Assembly (NCBI GenBank): GCA_043750125.1
Contig: JAYVCD010000328.1
Span: 1-11,124, forward strand
DNA length: 11,124 nucleotides
Reading direction: 5' to 3'
Source of the DNA: Archangiaceae bacterium
Lineage (GTDB): Bacteria; Myxococcota; Myxococcia; Myxococcales; Myxococcaceae
The stretch's first letter is position 1, and each line of letters starts with the position of its first letter. This document shows, piece by piece, positions 2,380 through 11,124 of this stretch. The notes under the pieces are model-generated. The model saw nothing but the letters and a program-made list of their open reading frames with translations. It was not told the origin of the DNA and did no database searches. Position numbers and translations under genes: made by a program.

Positions 2380-3921
2380 ATGCGTCTCTCTCTGGCTACC
2401 CGCATCTTCCTCGGCTACGCCGTGGTGCTGGTCACGTTCGGAGCGGTGTCGCTGTTTTCGGTCACCGAAATGCACCGCAACCAGGTGGAGTTCCGGCTCG
2501 TTTCAGAGGGCTATCTTCACCTGACTCAGGACGCGGCGGCGATCGAGACTTTTCACAAGAACCGCGAGCGGGACACCACCCGGCTGCGGGACGAGCGCAA
2601 TGTCGAGACCCGTCGGGCGCTGATCCGCCTGACCCGGTTGTACTTCCCCGGGTTGATGGCCGAGAAGATCAAGGCGGGACAGAAGACGGCGAAGGCGGTG
2701 ATGGAATTTGCCCCCGACACCGAAAAGGACTTCGTCGCCGAGGTCGCGCGCAAGTTCGACGAGCTGTCGCAGCGCTATGCCGAGTACGAGCAGCTGTCTG
2801 AATCGGCGTTCACGCTGCTCGAGCAGAACAGCCCTGACTGGGTCGCCGCCGAGGGCCGGCTCGACCGGCTTCAGGCCCTGGAAAATTCGATTGGGGTGAA
2901 CCTGCGGCTGCTGCACGGCTCGCTCGAGACGCGGATCAGCGAACGGGTCGCGCGGGCCCAGGAACGCGAGCGGGTCACTGGAGCTGCGATCATCGTCCTG
3001 CCCGTGCTGGCGATCGCGGTGGGGTTGATTGCGACTGCGCTTTCGGCGCGATCGCTGCGCCCGGTGCGAACGTTGATCGAAGGGGCCTCGCGCATCGGTC
3101 GGGGGGACTACTCGACCCAGATCGGGCTGAAGGGGGACGACGAGATTTCGCTGCTCGCCCAGGAGTTCGACGCGATGGCGCGGTCGCTACAGGAACGTGA
3201 AGCGCTGCTGAAGCAAAAGCAGGCCGAGCTGCTGCTGGCCGAACGGCTGGCGGCCGTGGGTCGGGTGGCGGCGCAGATCGCGCACGAGGTGCGCAACCCG
3301 CTGTCGTCCATCGGGCTGAACGTCGAGCTGCTCGAAGAGCAGATTCAAAACGCGAAGTTTACCACCCCGGAAGAAGGCCACGAAGCGATTGGGCTGTTGA
3401 AGGCGATTTCCCACGAGGTCGATCGACTGACCGAAGTCACCGAAGAGCATCTGCGGCTGGCGCGGCTGCCGTCCCCTTCCCTTCAGCCCGAAGACGTTCA
3501 CGCGCTGCTCGACCGGGTGTTGGCGTTCTCGGGCGAAGAGCTGTCCCGGGCGAAGATCGAAGTGAAGCGAGAGCCTGCGACTCAGCAGTTGTCGGCGCTG
3601 GCCGACGAAGGGCAGCTGCGCCAGGTGGTGCTCAACCTGATTCGCAACGCCCGTGAAGCGATGCGCGACGGAGGCACGCTCACCCTGAAGACCCGGCTGG
3701 TGAACGGGAGCGTCGAAATCGCAGTCGGGGACACCGGGCCCGGAATCGACAGCGAAACCCGGGCGAAAGTCTTTGACCCCTTTTTCTCGACCAAGCAAAG
3801 CGGTACGGGGTTGGGGTTGTCGCTCTCGAAACAAATCGTCCAGGCACACAACGGATCGCTCGAAGTGAATTCCGAGCCCGGCCATGGCGCCACCTTCATC
3901 ATCAGGCTTCCCCGCGCATGA
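2380..3921 (+). CDS. Membrane sensor histidine kinase (TM - helical periplasmic sensor - TM - HAMP - HisKA - HATPase_c), NtrB/PilS-like
   Basis: 513 aa. Two hydrophobic segments (~aa 8-28, ~201-222). HAMP (LRPVRTLIEGASRIGRGDYS...DDEISLLAQEFDAMARSL). H-box AHEVRNPL (His302), N-box QVVLNLIRNAREAM, G1 DTGPGI, F-box FDPFFSTK, G2 GTGLGL. Confidence 0.96.
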   Translation: MRLSLATRIFLGYAVVLVTFGAVSLFSVTEMHRNQVEFRLVSEGYLHLTQDAAAIETFHKNRERDTTRLRDERNVETRRALIRLTRLYFPGLMAEKIKAGQKTAKAVMEFAPDTEKDFVAEVARKFDELSQRYAEYEQLSESAFTLLEQNSPDWVAAEGRLDRLQALENSIGVNLRLLHGSLETRISERVARAQERERVTGAAIIVLPVLAIAVGLIATALSARSLRPVRTLIEGASRIGRGDYSTQIGLKGDDEISLLAQEFDAMARSLQEREALLKQKQAELLLAERLAAVGRVAAQIAHEVRNPLSSIGLNVELLEEQIQNAKFTTPEEGHEAIGLLKAISHEVDRLTEVTEEHLRLARLPSPSLQPEDVHALLDRVLAFSGEELSRAKIEVKREPATQQLSALADEGQLRQVVLNLIRNAREAMRDGGTLTLKTRLVNGSVEIAVGDTGPGIDSETRAKVFDPFFSTKQSGTGLGLSLSKQIVQAHNGSLEVNSEPGHGATFIIRLPRA

Positions 3922-5195
3922 GCTTCCGCTACTTCAAAGATCTGCTTCCCAATGGCTTGCGTCTGGTCACCGTCGAGACCCCTCACCTCCACTCGGCGAT
4001 GGTGTCCGTCTACGTGAGGGTGGGCTCGCGCCACGAGAGCCCGGCGAACAACGGCGTCAGTCATGCGCTCGAGCACCTGTTTTTCCGGGGAAGCGCGCGG
4101 TACCCCGACACGGTGGCGATGAACGCGCGGGTCGAAGCGGTGGGAGGAAACCTCAACGGCATCACCTCGCGCGATCTCTCGTACTACTTCACGCCTTCCC
4201 ACCCCGACGGAGTGGGCGTCGCGCTCGATGTGCTGGGAGATCTGCTCACCCGCCCGATGCTCAGCCGGCTGGAGCTCGAGAAGGAAATCATTCTCGAAGA
4301 GATGCTCGACGAGGTGGACGAGCACGGGCGCGACGTGGACGTGGAGAACCTCTCGAAGCTACAGCGGTTCGGAGATCACCCGCTGGGCCTGAAGATCGCG
4401 GGCACGCTGAAATCGGTTCGAGCGCTGAAGCTGTCGCAAGTGAAGGAGCATTTCCGCAAGCACTACGTCGCGGAAAACATGGTGGTCGCCGTCGCCGGGA
4501 AGGTGAACCGGGCGGCGCTGATCAAGCAGGCCACGAAGGCCTTTGCTCATGTGAAGAGCGGCTCGCCGGTGACCGAGGATGCTCCGCCCCCGCCCCCGAA
4601 GGGGCCGAGGCTGGACTTCGTGCGCGACGAGCAATCGCAGACTTCCTTCCGGCTGAGCTTTCCCACCGTGCCTGAGGTTCATCGCGACTTTCATGCGCTC
4701 TCGGCGCTGCGCCGCGTGCTCGACGATGGCTTGTCGTCCAGGCTGCCCTTCAACGTGGTCGAGAAACGGGGCCTGGCCTATTCGGTGGGCGCGACGATCG
4801 AAGCCTTTCACGACGCGGGCTCATTCGAAATCGACGGGGCCGCGGCGCCGCTGAAGGTCGCCGACACGGTGCGCGAGATCTTGAAGACGGTCGATACCCT
4901 TCGGGCGGGGAAGATCACCGCCGAAGAGATGAAGCGCGTTCGGGTTCGCTACCGGATGGCGGTGGAATCTCAGCAGGACGCTCCGGGCGACTTGCTGGGG
5001 TGGTTCGCCGGCGAAGAGCTGTTCCGCCCGCCGAAGTCGTTTGCGGTGCGGTGCCGCGAGGTCGAAGGGTTGAAGATCGCGGACCTGGTCCGGGTGGCGA
5101 AGCTCTATTTTCGCCCCGAGCGTTTGCTCGCCGTCGGGGTGGGGCCGAAGGAATGCGAGCGCGCGCTGCGCCGGGCCGTCACGTCCTGGCGCTGA
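3918..5195 (+). CDS. M16 family (insulinase/pitrilysin-like, M16B-type) zinc peptidase
   Basis: 425 aa. Typical N-terminus LPNGLRLV...VRVGSRHE...GVSHALEHLFFRGS with the inverted zinc motif HxxEH (HALEH, aa 49-53). Downstream LELEKEIILEE; C-domain SSRL...EKRGLAYSV. No signal peptide. ATGA overlap with the kinase stop. Confidence 0.95.
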   Translation: MSFRYFKDLLPNGLRLVTVETPHLHSAMVSVYVRVGSRHESPANNGVSHALEHLFFRGSARYPDTVAMNARVEAVGGNLNGITSRDLSYYFTPSHPDGVGVALDVLGDLLTRPMLSRLELEKEIILEEMLDEVDEHGRDVDVENLSKLQRFGDHPLGLKIAGTLKSVRALKLSQVKEHFRKHYVAENMVVAVAGKVNRAALIKQATKAFAHVKSGSPVTEDAPPPPPKGPRLDFVRDEQSQTSFRLSFPTVPEVHRDFHALSALRRVLDDGLSSRLPFNVVEKRGLAYSVGATIEAFHDAGSFEIDGAAAPLKVADTVREILKTVDTLRAGKITAEEMKRVRVRYRMAVESQQDAPGDLLGWFAGEELFRPPKSFAVRCREVEGLKIADLVRVAKLYFRPERLLAVGVGPKECERALRRAVTSWR

Positions 5196-6543: not shown

Positions 6544-6888
6544 ATGAAGTCGATGGACCCATTTGTTCGCCGCCTGGTCGAGCGGCTCCACGATCCTCGA
6601 TCGCAGCTCTCTCGGAATCGGCACTTTCACGCGTTCGAAAACCCGCAAGGACGCGCGGCGCTGAAGATCTCAAAACGGCTCAAGGCCCTTCAGGCGGACA
6701 TCGCGCGGTGCAGCGCCGAAGGCAGCCAACCGGTCGCCCGAACCCGACGAGACAAAGAAGGCACGGTGCGAATGGAAATCGAGCTCAAGCGCCTGCACGC
6801 ACGCCGGGTGACCCAGCTCGATCAGGCGGAATTCGAGTTGCTCTGCGCGCTGCCAGGCGTGAACGAGGCGGTCGTTCGCGAGGACTAA
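6544..6888 (+). CDS. Small basic hypothetical protein (111-114 aa)
   Basis: Exactly fills the gap between two minus-strand genes, with GC-rich third codon positions and natural-looking composition (MDPFVRRLVERLHDP...LSRNRHFHAFENPQGRAALKISKRLKAL). The start may be ATG 6553 rather than 6544. Its stop overlaps the convergent gene's stop (CTAA, 6885-6888). Confidence 0.8.
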   Translation: MKSMDPFVRRLVERLHDPRSQLSRNRHFHAFENPQGRAALKISKRLKALQADIARCSAEGSQPVARTRRDKEGTVRMEIELKRLHARRVTQLDQAEFELLCALPGVNEAVVRED

Positions 6889-8360
6889 CCTTCGTGGGGC
6901 GCCGGTGGCATAGGGGGGCGCAACAGGGTTCGAAGGGCGAGCAGGAAGTCGTTGTCGACGAGGCTCACTGCCGCAGGCGACCCGCGAAGTGAAGCCGGCA
7001 CCTGTTCGGCGGCGAGCAACCCGGGACCCGCGCCACCGATCAACACCAGCGGAAGTCGAAGCTGGAAGCCGCAGAAGCGGGCGAGCTTCAGCGCGGGCTC
7101 GTCGTCTTCGAAGACCAGCGCACCGATCGCTCCGTGGCTGAAGGGGCGCCACAAGGGGCGGGCCGCTTCGGCGGTGGGCAGCAGGACGAAATCCACTTTC
7201 AAGGAATCCGTCAGGTCGAGTCGACCCAGAGTCCCAAAGCCGCTGCGCAGACAGCCCGGTTCGGTGGCGACCCCCGACAGGCCCGGCATCCCGCGCAACA
7301 GCACTCCTCCTGCCCGGGGGCCGACGACGATGATCTTGGCCACTACCGCCGATCGCGCCACCCTCCCCCGAAGCAGCCGTGCCCGTAACGCGTGCACTTC
7401 GGCGGCAGCGAGCACCGGCTCGGCGCCCCGCACTTTTCCGTCCCGCGGCGAGACCACGATTCGATCGAGCAGCGCATTGAGCGCCGAGAGCACCGCGAGA
7501 TCTGGAGCGTCGACCTGGTCGAGCACCTCGCGCAGCGTCCGCGGAGTTTGAAGCAGCGCCAGCACCGCTGCGGTCACCGGGTGAGGCGCGACCGGGCCCT
7601 CGGCCGAGGGCGACAGCGACACCAGGGTCGACAGCGGCGGAAGCAACGGCATCAGCCGGTCGCGTTCGTCGGACTGGTGGGCTCCTTCGAGCAGCGCGTC
7701 TTCCATCGAACGGTCGATTCGGGTGCGGGTGGGCGCCGGGCCGGGGTTGAAGGCGAAGCTGCCTTCCTTCCACCCCAACAGCCGGAACAGGGCCTTCTCG
7801 CCTTCGATCTCGCCCTCGCGCGCATTGACCGGCCGGCCGGCGCTGAGGCCAATCTCGCCCCGCTCTTGCCCGTTGACGATCACCAACCGGCCGGTGCGCT
7901 TGTTGGCGGCGAGGATCTGCAGCAGATCGGCGAGCGGAAGCTGAGACAACCCGCCTTCAATCTCGCGCGCATCGCCCTTGAGGCTGCGCGCGGCCTCGAC
8001 CCGCCGACAGAGGTGATCGATGCGCGAGAGGACCTCGTCGAGGTTGTAGGGCTTCTTCAAAAAACCTTCGCGCCAGGCTCGAAGCCGGTCGAGGTCCGCG
8101 TCGTGGGTGGTGAGCACGACCGGGATGTCGGAAGTGCGCGGATTCGAAGCGAGGATCTGGGCGTAGTTCTTCGCGTCGATCAGCGTGCACTGCTCGTCAT
8201 AGAGAATCACGTCGGGGTGCCGAAGCACGGCCACCTCGAGCGCCTTGCTCCCATCGGGTGCGTAGGTGACCTGGTAGCCCCGCTGCCGCAGCGCGCGCGT
8301 CAGGGGTCGCACCCCGGTGAGCTCAGGGTCTGCGATCAGAACTTTGCGTGCCTGGGCCAT
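6885..8360 (-). CDS. Response-regulator-like protein: REC + DUF4388 (PATAN-like) + wHTH-like segment + degenerate small-GTPase-like domain
   Basis: 491 aa. REC aa ~5-118 (KVLIADPE, PDVILYD55, PVVLTT, FLKKPY). DUF4388 aa ~134-232 (IEGGLSQLPLADLLQILAANKRTGRLVI...EGEKALFRLLGWKEGSFAF...DALLEGAHQSDE). Helical segment aa ~260-304. C-terminal alpha/beta domain aa ~340-481. Confidence 0.9.
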   Translation of the reverse strand: MAQARKVLIADPELTGVRPLTRALRQRGYQVTYAPDGSKALEVAVLRHPDVILYDEQCTLIDAKNYAQILASNPRTSDIPVVLTTHDADLDRLRAWREGFLKKPYNLDEVLSRIDHLCRRVEAARSLKGDAREIEGGLSQLPLADLLQILAANKRTGRLVIVNGQERGEIGLSAGRPVNAREGEIEGEKALFRLLGWKEGSFAFNPGPAPTRTRIDRSMEDALLEGAHQSDERDRLMPLLPPLSTLVSLSPSAEGPVAPHPVTAAVLALLQTPRTLREVLDQVDAPDLAVLSALNALLDRIVVSPRDGKVRGAEPVLAAAEVHALRARLLRGRVARSAVVAKIIVVGPRAGGVLLRGMPGLSGVATEPGCLRSGFGTLGRLDLTDSLKVDFVLLPTAEAARPLWRPFSHGAIGALVFEDDEPALKLARFCGFQLRLPLVLIGGAGPGLLAAEQVPASLRGSPAAVSLVDNDFLLALRTLLRPPMPPAPHEG

Positions 8361-8369
8361 CGCTTCGAT

Positions 8370-9779
8370 TCACCAGGGCTGAAGGTCGTACTCGTGCTGC
8401 AGCTGGGACACGAGCCCCTCGACGAGCGTGACATCAGAGCTGTGAAAGCCCCAGGTGAGCCCGCGCCCGCGGCGCTGCAGCAGGGCGTAGGCCGACCCAT
8501 CGCCCAGCCAGAGCAGAAACTGATGTCGATTGAGCCGCTCGTCACCCTCGAGAAATACCGGAGTCACGACCGGGTGGTCCGAGATGTCGGTGCGCCGGCC
8601 GAGGACGTAGACGGTCGCTCCCAGGTCGGGCGGAGCGTCGTCGAGCCCGAGGACGATCGGCAGATTGCTGCGAATCTCGGGGGTGCCGACGTAGAGCAAC
8701 CCGCGGGTCGACGGCTCGCGGGTCAGCTCGCGGGCGAGCTCGGTCTGCAGCTCGTCGTAGAGCACGTCAGCCACTTTTCCGCGGCGCGACGGCTCGCCGG
8801 GGGCTTCGGGCAGCCGGGGCGATCGCGAGTTGCCCAGCAGCAGGTCGACCTCGTCCCAGAAGGGAAGCCCGTCGAGCTTCAAGGCCACATGCAACGATTT
8901 GCGGCGCTCTTCCATGCGCTGCCGACAGCGAAGGATCAGCTCGTCGAAGTCGTCGCCGTCGCGTGGAAAGGTCGCCGCTCCGCCGGTGAGGCCGAAGGGA
9001 AGCTTCAGCTCGAGCGCCTTGCAGTCGGGATCCTCGCGGACCGTCGCGAGCGCGCGGCGCAGGAACATCAACCCGCCGAAGTAATCGGTCTCGGGCAGCA
9101 AGATGTGAAATTCCTGATCCGTCGCGCGGGCCACGACATCGGAATCCCGGATGATGGTGCTCATCACCCTCAAGGTGGCCTTCTGCGCGGCGCGGGCATC
9201 GGTTGCGCCCAGGCGGCCCCGAATCTGGGGAAGGTTGTCGAGACTGAAGGTGAGCAGTGAAAACGATCGTCCGTAGCGGCGCGCCTTGTAGATTTCCTTC
9301 GTCGCGTAGTCGGTGAAGTACGACAGCGTGTACGCGCTGGTCTCGCGATCGCGAAGCCCCTGGCGTTGCAGCGAGACCAGACGGGTGGCGGCGCGAACCG
9401 ACGCGGCGGCAAACTGGGCGAGCAGCTGCGAAGGCTGCAACACGTCATCGCCGAAGGACCCGGCCAAAGGGTCGGCCAGCTGCAGCAGACCGAGCACCTC
9501 TCCCCCGCCGATCAGCGGCACCAGCAGCGAGGTGCCCGCGCGCCACGGCAGCAGCTGAACCAGCGCGGGGTCGACCGTCTCGGGCAGCCCCCGGCGCTCG
9601 ATCAGCCCACGGAAGGCACGCAGCCGAAGCCCGGTGCGCTCGCCGCTGACCCACAGCGCCCCGCTCTGAGCGCCGCAGAGGTCTGCGAATTCCGAGAGGA
9701 TGGTTTCCTGCACCGCCTCGAGATCGCTGAGCGACGCCAACTGCAGGCACCGCTGCTCGAGGGGAACCCTCGCGGTCAC
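8370..9779 (-). CDS. GAF + degenerate GGDEF (intact RxxD I-site) + DICT-like domain protein
   Basis: Start placed at GTG 9779 (GTGA overlap with the dapF stop) rather than 9821, giving 469 aa. GAF-like N-terminus (SGALW...LRLRAFRG...SLLVPLIGGGEVLGLLQL...F...LLAQFAAASV). GGDEF fold (LRDRETSAY...EIYKARRYGRSFSLLTFSLD...IRDSDVVARATDQEFHILLPETD...GAATFPRDG). C-terminal ~170 aa extra domain. Confidence 0.9.
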   Translation of the reverse strand: MTARVPLEQRCLQLASLSDLEAVQETILSEFADLCGAQSGALWVSGERTGLRLRAFRGLIERRGLPETVDPALVQLLPWRAGTSLLVPLIGGGEVLGLLQLADPLAGSFGDDVLQPSQLLAQFAAASVRAATRLVSLQRQGLRDRETSAYTLSYFTDYATKEIYKARRYGRSFSLLTFSLDNLPQIRGRLGATDARAAQKATLRVMSTIIRDSDVVARATDQEFHILLPETDYFGGLMFLRRALATVREDPDCKALELKLPFGLTGGAATFPRDGDDFDELILRCRQRMEERRKSLHVALKLDGLPFWDEVDLLLGNSRSPRLPEAPGEPSRRGKVADVLYDELQTELARELTREPSTRGLLYVGTPEIRSNLPIVLGLDDAPPDLGATVYVLGRRTDISDHPVVTPVFLEGDERLNRHQFLLWLGDGSAYALLQRRGRGLTWGFHSSDVTLVEGLVSQLQHEYDLQPW

Positions 9780-10591
9780 AGCGTTCCTTCGAACACCTTT
9801 ACCGCCGGACCGCGCAGCCACACTTGCGAGCGATCAGCCGTCGCCTTGATTTCGAGAATGCCCCCGGGCAGCTGCACCGGAACCCAGGTGTCCCAGGCGA
9901 CGCGCCGGGCGATCGCGTGCGCCACGACGGCGGCGCAGGCGGCGGTACCACAGGCCTGGGTGAGGCCGACTCCGCGTTCCCAGACGGTGACCTGGAGCCC
10001 CCCTTCGGGCCGGGGTCGGCAGAAGGCGACGTTGGTGCGTTCGAGAAACAGGGGGTGGCGCTCGAGGCTCGGGCCCAGCTCGGCGGCGCGCTCGGGCCCG
10101 GTATCGAGCAAGACCAGATGGGGGTTGCCCATGCTCAGTGCGGTGCCGCGCACCCCGCCCACTTCCTGATCGACGAAGGGGCCGCCGTGAGGCAGATGAT
10201 CGGCCTCGAGGCGTGCGGGGCCCATCGCGACGGTGATGCGAGAGACTTCGGTGCCGGACCACTCGATTTCCGACGAGAGAATTCCCGCGCCGGTGCCGAC
10301 GCTGAGCTCGCGGGGGACGGGCGAGGACGACGAGCTCTCGGCCAGGTGCTTGACGACGCAGCGCAGCCCGTTGCCGCACATCTCGGCGGTCGAGCCGTCG
10401 GCGTTGTGCACCACCATTCGGCCGGCGATGCCGGTGGCGGGAAGAATGACGAGCACCCCGTCGGCGCCGATGCCCCGACGGCGATCACACCAGGCCTGTG
10501 CGGTCGCAGAGTCGATGTCGACTCCGCGCAGTCGCCGGTCGACGACGATGAAGTCGTTTCCCAGGCCGTGGTACTTGAAGAACCGCTCCAT
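9776..10591 (-). CDS. dapF: Diaminopimelate epimerase
   Basis: Start at ATG 10591 (TAATG overlap with the upstream stop), 271 aa. Motifs FFKYHGLGNDF, DRRRGIGADG, NADGSTAEMCGNGLRC, SMGNPH and VWERGVGLTQACGTAACA; both catalytic cysteines are present. Confidence 0.97.
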   Translation of the reverse strand: MERFFKYHGLGNDFIVVDRRLRGVDIDSATAQAWCDRRRGIGADGVLVILPATGIAGRMVVHNADGSTAEMCGNGLRCVVKHLAESSSSSPVPRELSVGTGAGILSSEIEWSGTEVSRITVAMGPARLEADHLPHGGPFVDQEVGGVRGTALSMGNPHLVLLDTGPERAAELGPSLERHPLFLERTNVAFCRPRPEGGLQVTVWERGVGLTQACGTAACAAVVAHAIARRVAWDTWVPVQLPGGILEIKATADRSQVWLRGPAVKVFEGTL

Positions 10592-11124
10592 TACATCGAC
10601 AGGCCGCCATCGACATCGATGGTACGGCCGTTGAAGTAGTCGCACTCGAGGATGAACTTCACTGCGACCCAGATGTCTTCGGGCAGGCCGATGCGCCCGA
10701 CTGGAATGTTCGCCACCAGCGCTTCGCGCGCCTTGGGGTTCATCCCCTGGGTCATCGGGGTCTCGATCATTCCCGGAGCGATCGCTCCGACCCGGATTCC
10801 GTAGGCTGCAAACTCGCGCGCCCAGGTGACGGTGTTGGACGCGAGCGCGGCTTTGGCCGAGACGTAGTTGCTCTGCCCCCGGTTTCCGTGGCGGGCGACC
10901 GACGACATGTTCACGATTACGCCCGGCTTGAGCTCTTTCTCGACCATCTTCGCGACCGTCTCACGGACCATCATCGTCGCGCCGGTGAGGTTGACGGCGA
11001 TGACCGCGTTCCACTGCTCGATCGACAGCTTGGTAATCGCGCCGGTGGTCCGGTCTTTCTTCACCAGCAGCCCGTCGCGCAGGATGCCGGCGTTGTTGAC
11101 GAGCCCGTTGAGGCCGCCCATCTG
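10591..11124 (-). CDS. Short-chain dehydrogenase/reductase, FabG-like 3-oxoacyl-ACP/CoA reductase; 5'-truncated by the window edge
   Basis: LVNNAGILRDG, VNLTG, IVNMSS, catalytic YxxxK (GQSNYVSAK), GIRVGAIAPGMIETPMT, IPVGRIG and VDGG. The N-terminal Rossmann GxxxGxG is absent and the frame stays open to the edge. Confidence 0.93.
   Translation of the reverse strand, partial: QMGGLNGLVNNAGILRDGLLVKKDRTTGAITKLSIEQWNAVIAVNLTGATMMVRETVAKMVEKELKPGVIVNMSSVARHGNRGQSNYVSAKAALASNTVTWAREFAAYGIRVGAIAPGMIETPMTQGMNPKAREALVANIPVGRIGLPEDIWVAVKFILECDYFNGRTIDVDGGLSM

Follow-up and report, generated by a model that had tools for sequence, protein, structure and literature searches.

The window analysed here, an 11,124-nucleotide stretch of DNA from an Archangiaceae bacterium, encodes on its reverse strand a protein (P0001) that ends in what looks like a small GTPase stripped of its GTP-binding motifs. 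An earlier note on this DNA had quoted VAKIIVVGPRAGGVLL...GFGTLGRLDLTDSLKVDFVLLPTAEAARPLWRPFSHGAIGALVFEDD...LRLPLVLIGGAG from positions 6918-7343 of the reverse strand, and had read these residues as a catalytically dead MglA/CvnD-like domain, possibly a decoy for MglB/roadblock proteins. The quoted residues are exact and correspond to residues 340-481 of the open reading frame at 6885..8360. What such a domain descends from, and what it could be kept for without its motifs, are the questions raised by this locus.

Domain organization and predicted fold

As judged from the reading frame, the domain hits and the model, the 491-residue P0001 has the domain order receiver, PATAN, winged-helix-like (wHTH) and pseudo-GTPase, all encoded on the reverse strand. 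The atypical receiver (residues 7-114; 8019..8342) is a Pfam Response_reg domain, in which D11-P12 replaces the acidic pair and D55 and K103 are retained. Its second acidic residue is changed to proline in 66 of 73 orthologues, and D55 is present in 69 of the 73; among 80 full-length distant members, D55 is retained in just 52%. The I-L-x-x-N-P-R-T loop of the receiver (residues 69-76; 8120-8150, reverse strand) is among the best-conserved parts of the whole protein; it lies outside the interface modelled below and may be a second binding site. The PATAN (DUF4388) domain (residues 135-233; 7662..7958), identified by Pfam with an E value of 2.5e-20, is present in 73 of 74 full-length representatives of the domain family. 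It is followed by the winged-helix-like domain (residues ~246-305; 7446..7625), assigned from the secondary structure of the model, which has a weak match to Pfam HTH_Cmi2_C (E value of 0.003, below the cut-off) and aligns to the C-terminal half of the Deinococcus/Thermus DUF4388 proteins. The fourth, pseudo-GTPase domain (residues 339-482; 6915..7346), delimited by the model and by profiles, has no match in Pfam or NCBIfam, as the earlier note had expected of standard annotation, nor does any of the 79 family members aligned match a GTPase family. The orthologues carry database names such as "DUF4388 domain-containing protein" or "response regulator". P0001 exists as one copy in its own genome, where no paralogue of the pseudo-GTPase domain was found.

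The AlphaFold2 model of full-length P0001 (pLDDT 86.5, pTM 0.46) comprises four folded units: the receiver, the PATAN domain, the winged-helix-like domain and an α/β domain from residue 339. A pTM of only 0.46 despite well-folded domains means that no fixed inter-domain packing is predicted. Modelled alone, the C-terminal domain has a pLDDT of 88.7 and a pTM of 0.84, and this predicted structure shows the strand-helix order of small GTPases. Structural similarity search using Foldseek gave 49 matches with E values up to 0.001 for this domain; among the matches listed, 43 of 43 are Arf, Arl, Rab or MglA proteins (best E value of 7e-5, TM 0.42-0.57), in line with the small-GTPase fold suspected earlier. 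VIA-align ranked Rab23 first (Z 10.8, rmsd 4.2, 141 aligned), in a leading group with SelB, LepA, CysN, Rab3C and Arf1 (Z 10.0-10.8, rmsd 3.0-5.6, 123-150 aligned). No other fold was recognized among its 50 rows, in which a few chains of large assemblies are unnamed by their titles. Values of 0.78-0.85 to Arf/ATP_bind_1 clusters in the ESM Atlas are leads only. The full-length model matched receiver domains only in Foldseek, and a profile search against PDB sequences yielded nothing beyond Arf1 matches below the threshold (E values of about 0.1-0.2, via an RPLWR motif), which carry no evidential weight. Altogether, the Pfam domains, the fold model and the profile matches given below point to a pseudo-GTPase fused to a receiver and a DUF4388 domain, as had been supposed.

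Motif loss, selection and ancestry

The decisive losses in the C-terminal domain of P0001 are those of the Lys-Thr/Ser of G1 and the Gly-Gln of G3, both of which had been picked out by eye. The degenerate P-loop reads GPRAGGV (residues 347-353; 7302..7322, reverse strand). Whether some orthologues keep GxxxxGKT had been left to an alignment: among 249 distinct homologous domains, none has GxxxxGK[ST] at the P-loop position, the two pattern matches both lying before β1. GK[ST] is likewise absent from the P-loop in the best 150 of 288 representatives (50% identity) and in all 73 genome-derived orthologues, these three sets overlapping; no orthologue with an intact P-loop was found in word-based homologue searches of limited sensitivity or in the best 150 of the 288 representatives. 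Alignment with GTPGQ-type GTPases shows the threonine stretch of G2, which precedes DFG, to be deleted or replaced. G3 reads LPTAE, with its proline present in 99% of the family, and PGQ occurs in one of the best 150 of the 288 representatives, the distant P0235 (LPGQ). At the G4 position (LVLIGGAG; residues 438-445; 7026..7049, reverse strand), neither NKxD, NxFD nor TRQD is found in any of the 73 orthologues, and NKxD in none of the 249 domains. The absence of NKxD noted earlier is thus real; its use as a diagnostic mark is not justified, because the G4 of CvnD-type GTPases is itself NxFD. With a predicted G fold and its G motifs absent, the domain is a putative class I pseudoGTPase.

Simple counting, with saturation uncorrected, gave dN/dS values of 0.15, 0.32, 0.40 and 0.28 for the pseudo-GTPase domain in four groups, and therefore the domain is not in decay. 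The β2-β4 segment had the lowest value in three of the groups and tied in the fourth. Identity across the 80 full-length distant members is 0.39 in β2-β4, 0.23 in β1-α1 and 0.16 after α3. By these measures the domain evolves under purifying selection, strongest from β2 to switch II. The conserved β2-β3-switch II patch, FGTLG ... LPTAEAARPLWRPF (residues 375-407; 7140..7238, reverse strand), which by profile alignment is the equivalent of DFGRI ... GTPGQxRFWFMW of CvnD, is the predicted docking surface, as judged from conservation and the complex model.

The resemblance to MglA/CvnD-like G domains, first seen by eye, goes beyond chance. A score of 20 bits with the family HMM A4 was exceeded by 95 CvnD-type GTPases out of 96, but by none of 480 shuffles and none of the 96 sequences when reversed; three sequences of this 96-member reference set were scanned and all are Pfam ATP_bind_1. 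Comparison by hhalign aligned the domain family with the CvnD type at 95% probability (E value of 2e-8; 5e-8 in a second run), in a register that pairs KII with KI, FGTLG with DFGRI, LP with TPGQ, PLW with FMW and GAIG with GAxG. The Deinococcus/Thermus-type GTPases aligned at 94% (E value of 1.3e-7; 78% with a narrower profile), and scored a median of 42 bits with the broad domain profile. Group-1 MglA, represented by 11 MglA/SofG-like proteins from five myxobacterial genomes, was rejected as the ancestor (non-significant hhalign P of 0.56 and 0.33; best score of 1.4 bits, 0 of 11 above 20 bits). The proposed kinship with the MglA/CvnD family stands, in a narrower form: profile comparison supports descent from the GTPGQ type (groups 2-5), and not from the group-1 MglA of myxobacterial polarity. 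In the available text of the study by Wuichet and Sogaard-Andersen (PMC4316618), GTPGQ defines groups 2-5 of the MglA family, and NxFD is the G4 of group 2.

Intact GTPGQ-type GTPases are rare in the genomes that we compared: scoring 8 candidates in each turned up one in a single genome of the 401. The sole example, in G108 (L264:188-2439), lies in the gene order roadblock, PATAN-wHTH-like gene, GTPase, roadblock, and its operon is ~50% identical to Deinococcus-Thermus proteins; it could have come by transfer or by bin contamination (6% for G108). The closest plasmid relatives of its GTPase are from Thermus and Deinococcus, whose GTPases retain GAGKTT and GTPGQ. In all seven Deinococcus/Thermus plasmid loci inspected, the gene adjoining that of the GTPase encodes DUF4388 or a homologous protein, with a roadblock gene coming next. 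The PATAN and wHTH domains of P0001 align with these adjoining genes at an hhalign probability of 95% (E value of 3e-8, 172 columns), the wHTH part alone matching weakly (best 9.0 bits, shuffles 6.4). As the order of these modules in P0001 is matched in Deinococcus/Thermus by a PATAN-wHTH gene adjoining one for an intact GTPase, these alignments suggest that P0001 arose by fusion of two such genes, followed by loss of activity. In the genome of the window itself (G000, an 89%-complete assembly), canonical MglA was not found and a SofG-like GTPase was seen on C391 only; the missing MglA is probably an assembly gap.

A co-occurring upstream gene for a predicted partner

Directly upstream of P0001, with its stop 9 nt before the P0001 ATG, lies a gene for a GAF - degenerate GGDEF - unnamed C-terminal domain protein (8370..9779, reverse strand), assigned as the putative partner from Pfam and adjacency. 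Its likely GTG start at 9779 overlaps the stop of dapF (GTGA overlap, GAAGGA upstream), and dapF itself (9776..10645, reverse strand), known from annotation, is the usual gene upstream of the pair in the loci compared. The C-terminal domain of the partner (~170 residues; 8373..8882, reverse strand) belongs to no Pfam family, has no solved relative by single-sequence search, gave no match to one roadblock protein in a weak test, and presumably has a DICT-like look. Across loci the architecture is (receiver)-GAF-GGDEF plus this unnamed domain. The partner has no N-terminal receiver in this genus (the window and L001-L004), and most orthologues have one (for example L096, L097, L101 and L109). 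The GGDEF motif is intact in none of 73 partners and RxxD is retained in 72 of them; such a loss with RxxD retained is the usual pattern of c-di-GMP receptors according to the part of PMC4686200 available. Judging from its sequence, the partner is likely a c-di-GMP receptor.

The pseudo-GTPase domain was detected in 245 of 401 genomes of a phylum sample, nearly always as a single copy and with one of the 245 (G084) spurious, and the family extends beyond Myxococcota to a Desulfuromonas protein. The partner C-terminal domain is present in 259 of the 401. Counted by family, the two domains occur in 160 and 161 of 171 genomes, 48 and 46 of 67, and 15 and 15 of 18, and both are absent from families of 17, 20 and 21 genomes; these genomes are related, so the counts are not independent. 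The partner is adjacent to and co-oriented with the P0001 orthologue in 76 of 79 loci, two of which are from the same genome; of the three exceptions, two lie at contig ends and one (G100) has the partner elsewhere in its genome. Three loci, L064 and L095 (G084, G380) and L005, had been removed before counting as spurious or fragmentary.

Two other features surround the pair. A 114-residue reading frame of no Pfam family (6544-6888, forward strand) converges on the P0001 gene with a stop overlap of 4 nt, and its homologues lie near the P0001-partner pair in 10 of 19 loci. Further away, genes for a HAMP histidine kinase and an M16 peptidase overlap as a pair (2380-5195, forward strand), which also occurs near the P0001 locus in several families (L097, L099, L102, L108).

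We modelled the complex between P0001 residues 1-484 and a 334-residue segment of the partner covering the GGDEF and C-terminal domains. The input consisted of 72-row paired alignments with both proteins from the same loci; L272 was omitted as a duplicate genome, L311 for its ill-defined end and L290 for an ambiguous base, as were incomplete pairs. The complex reached an ipSAE of 0.83 (0.83-0.84 over three runs), against 0.00 for the best of 3 controls; in the calibration, which is rough for self-made alignments, 116 of 157 solved complexes attain the ipSAE mark, as do 2 of 215 mismatched pairs. The runs share at least 81% of contacts, and the pLDDT of the partner is at least 83. Although residues 1-484 were offered, all confident contacts on the P0001 side fall within residues 330-409, centred on F375-T377 and P402-F407 of the conserved patch. 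Within the pseudo-GTPase domain, conservation is higher at the interface than elsewhere (0.64 versus 0.42). On the partner, most predicted contacts come from the C-terminal domain, in which interface and other residues do not differ (0.57 versus 0.56); the interface includes the invariant Y445 and the near-invariant E361 and H460 (numbering from a start at 9821). As sequence searching turned up no solved relative of this domain, there is no sign that the model reproduces a known complex. The model predicts that the pseudo-GTPase domain binds the partner.

Named orthologues of P0001 from Myxococcus xanthus exist among the database matches. In G118 the partner has 617 codons, with a receiver, GAF and GGDEF; MXAN5053, also of 617 codons, is listed among response regulators in the available portions of PMC4686200 and PMC4671073. 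As both share this length and a receiver, we infer that the partner is MXAN_5053, and its neighbour MXAN_5052 is probably the P0001 orthologue. According to PMC4686200, three mutants out of 24 were affected in motility and the other 21, the MXAN5053 deletion included, showed no defect in growth or motility; if MXAN5053 is the partner, the output of the pair may be subtle. In the openly accessible literature that we searched, we found no main text that mentions MXAN_5052, and no description of P0001 or of a DUF4388-GTPase fusion.

Proposed role and comparison with known systems

We propose, with a probability of about two in three, that the G-fold C-terminal domain without GTP-binding motifs is a nucleotide-independent docking domain for the upstream degenerate-GGDEF protein. 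The lost motifs together with the predicted grip on the neighbour make it likely a fixed docking site, not an on/off switch. The proposed course of events takes as its basis the family-wide absence of G1, G3 and G4 and the conservation, under purifying selection, of the predicted fold and its β2-switch II patch. A PATAN-wHTH gene would have fused to an adjoining GTPGQ-type MglA gene, an arrangement still seen in Deinococcus/Thermus, and the fusion would then have acquired its receiver and lost both catalysis and its roadblock partner. The former effector face (residues 330-342, 364-377 and 390-409) is predicted to dock on the C-terminal domain and the GGDEF edge of the partner. The latter may sense c-di-GMP via the retained RxxD, plus phosphorylation where a receiver is present, and PATAN may relay the signal to a target or localise the complex there. 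More tentatively, and with some doubt on our part, this dead G domain, of ancient origin in a fused PATAN-wHTH/MglA operon, might clamp a c-di-GMP receptor with its former switch II face, such that GTP control has been swapped for c-di-GMP control. If so, c-di-GMP binding would gate where and when PATAN acts, for example at a pilus or polar target, and M. xanthus would carry a case of G-protein-to-second-messenger rewiring.

The conserved surface corresponds to the switch face by which GTPases contact their GAPs and effectors. This would also suit the role raised by the earlier note, that of a decoy or scaffold towards MglB/roadblock GAPs or towards MglA effectors, through which the domain would modulate the polarity switch. 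Such a role appears improbable, since the similarity to group-1 MglA is undetectable, no roadblock gene occurs among the 11 window reading frames scanned, active GTPGQ-type GTPases were found only in the single genome mentioned above, and the GGDEF neighbour occupies the same surface in the complex model. These points stand against a roadblock gene in the ancestral-type operons (7 of 7 plasmid loci), the occurrence of PATAN genes close to some group 1 and 5 mglA genes in the available text of PMC4316618, and the enrichment in MglA proximity labelling of SgnC, a PATAN protein that may or may not be P0001 (PMC10630675; bioRxiv 10.1101/2021.06.11.447907). A hydrolysis-dead domain still binding a nucleotide or other small ligand, as a sensor, is likewise unlikely: the glycine-rich loop after β1 (GxGPxAGR) that close relatives retain is unconserved in distant members, no pocket is lined by an invariant Lys, Asp or Asn, and β1-α1 and the region after α3 are the least conserved parts (0.23 and 0.16, versus 0.39 for β2-β4). 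In favour of such a sensor, LPG does survive at G3 in some members.

There is a small chance that the domain is kept for folding, for packing on its own PATAN, wHTH or receiver domain, or for self-association, with the modelled neighbour contact incidental. Many of the conserved Gly, Pro and Trp residues could be structural, and blind-picked neighbouring genes pass the complex test in 7 of 44 cases; the complex score, however, is far above the controls, its contacts fall on the conserved patch, the adjacency and co-occurrence of the partner hold over the phylum sample, and no fixed packing is predicted at the full-length pTM. Docking on the degenerate-GGDEF neighbour is the role that we carry into the comparisons below.

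Pseudo-GTPases are a known kind of protein, as the available text of PMC12490416 describes, and PATAN-MglA gene neighbourhoods are known as well; no pseudo-GTPase from the MglA family was found described in the literature searched. Few pseudo-GTPases are mechanistically understood, and P0001 offers a predicted partner with interface residues, a traceable path of descent from an intact operon, and conservation in M. xanthus. The present analysis also assigns a fold to an unannotated domain that recurs in hundreds of proteins named "DUF4388 domain-containing", and suggests what an uncharacterised protein with a degenerate GGDEF domain may bind.

Among known systems, MglA and SofG of M. xanthus (group 1) have the fold in common with P0001 (6h17, Foldseek E value of 4.7e-4), which differs from them in lacking significant profile similarity, TVPGQ, the arginine finger and NKRD. 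The MglA groups 2-5 (GTPGQ; CvnD of the actinobacterial conservon, MfpB; PF03029; PMC4316618) share both fold and profile similarity over β1-β5. Compared to these, P0001 retains the K of KI, the FG of DFG, the P of GTPGQ, the W of FMW and GAxG, whereas GK[ST], the TTT of switch I, the Gly-Gln of G3 and G4 are gone; moreover, its domain sits behind receiver-PATAN-wHTH, and the window has no roadblock gene coupled to it. The Deinococcus/Thermus operons (for example A0O31_RS11755/RS11750 and MWM12_RS10550/RS10555/RS10560) have homologous modules in the order of P0001, PATAN-wHTH and then GTPase, but as separate genes; G1 and G3 are intact there, a roadblock gene is present, and the receiver is missing. 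The PatA-type regulators (PatA, PixE, LsiR; PATAN-REC) also combine PATAN and a receiver in one chain; in P0001 this order is reversed, the receiver is atypical, and the wHTH and pseudo-GTPase domains are extra. Binding to PilB1 has been shown for PixE. A functional likeness is proposed to the N-terminal domain of AAGAB, a eukaryotic class I pseudoGTPase of other ancestry, which is among the structural matches of the C-terminal domain (9dds, Z 8.8). In the available text of PMC12490416 it is a protein-binding G fold without G motifs, as predicted here for P0001; AAGAB binds away from its switch regions, whereas P0001 is predicted to use switch II and the interswitch.
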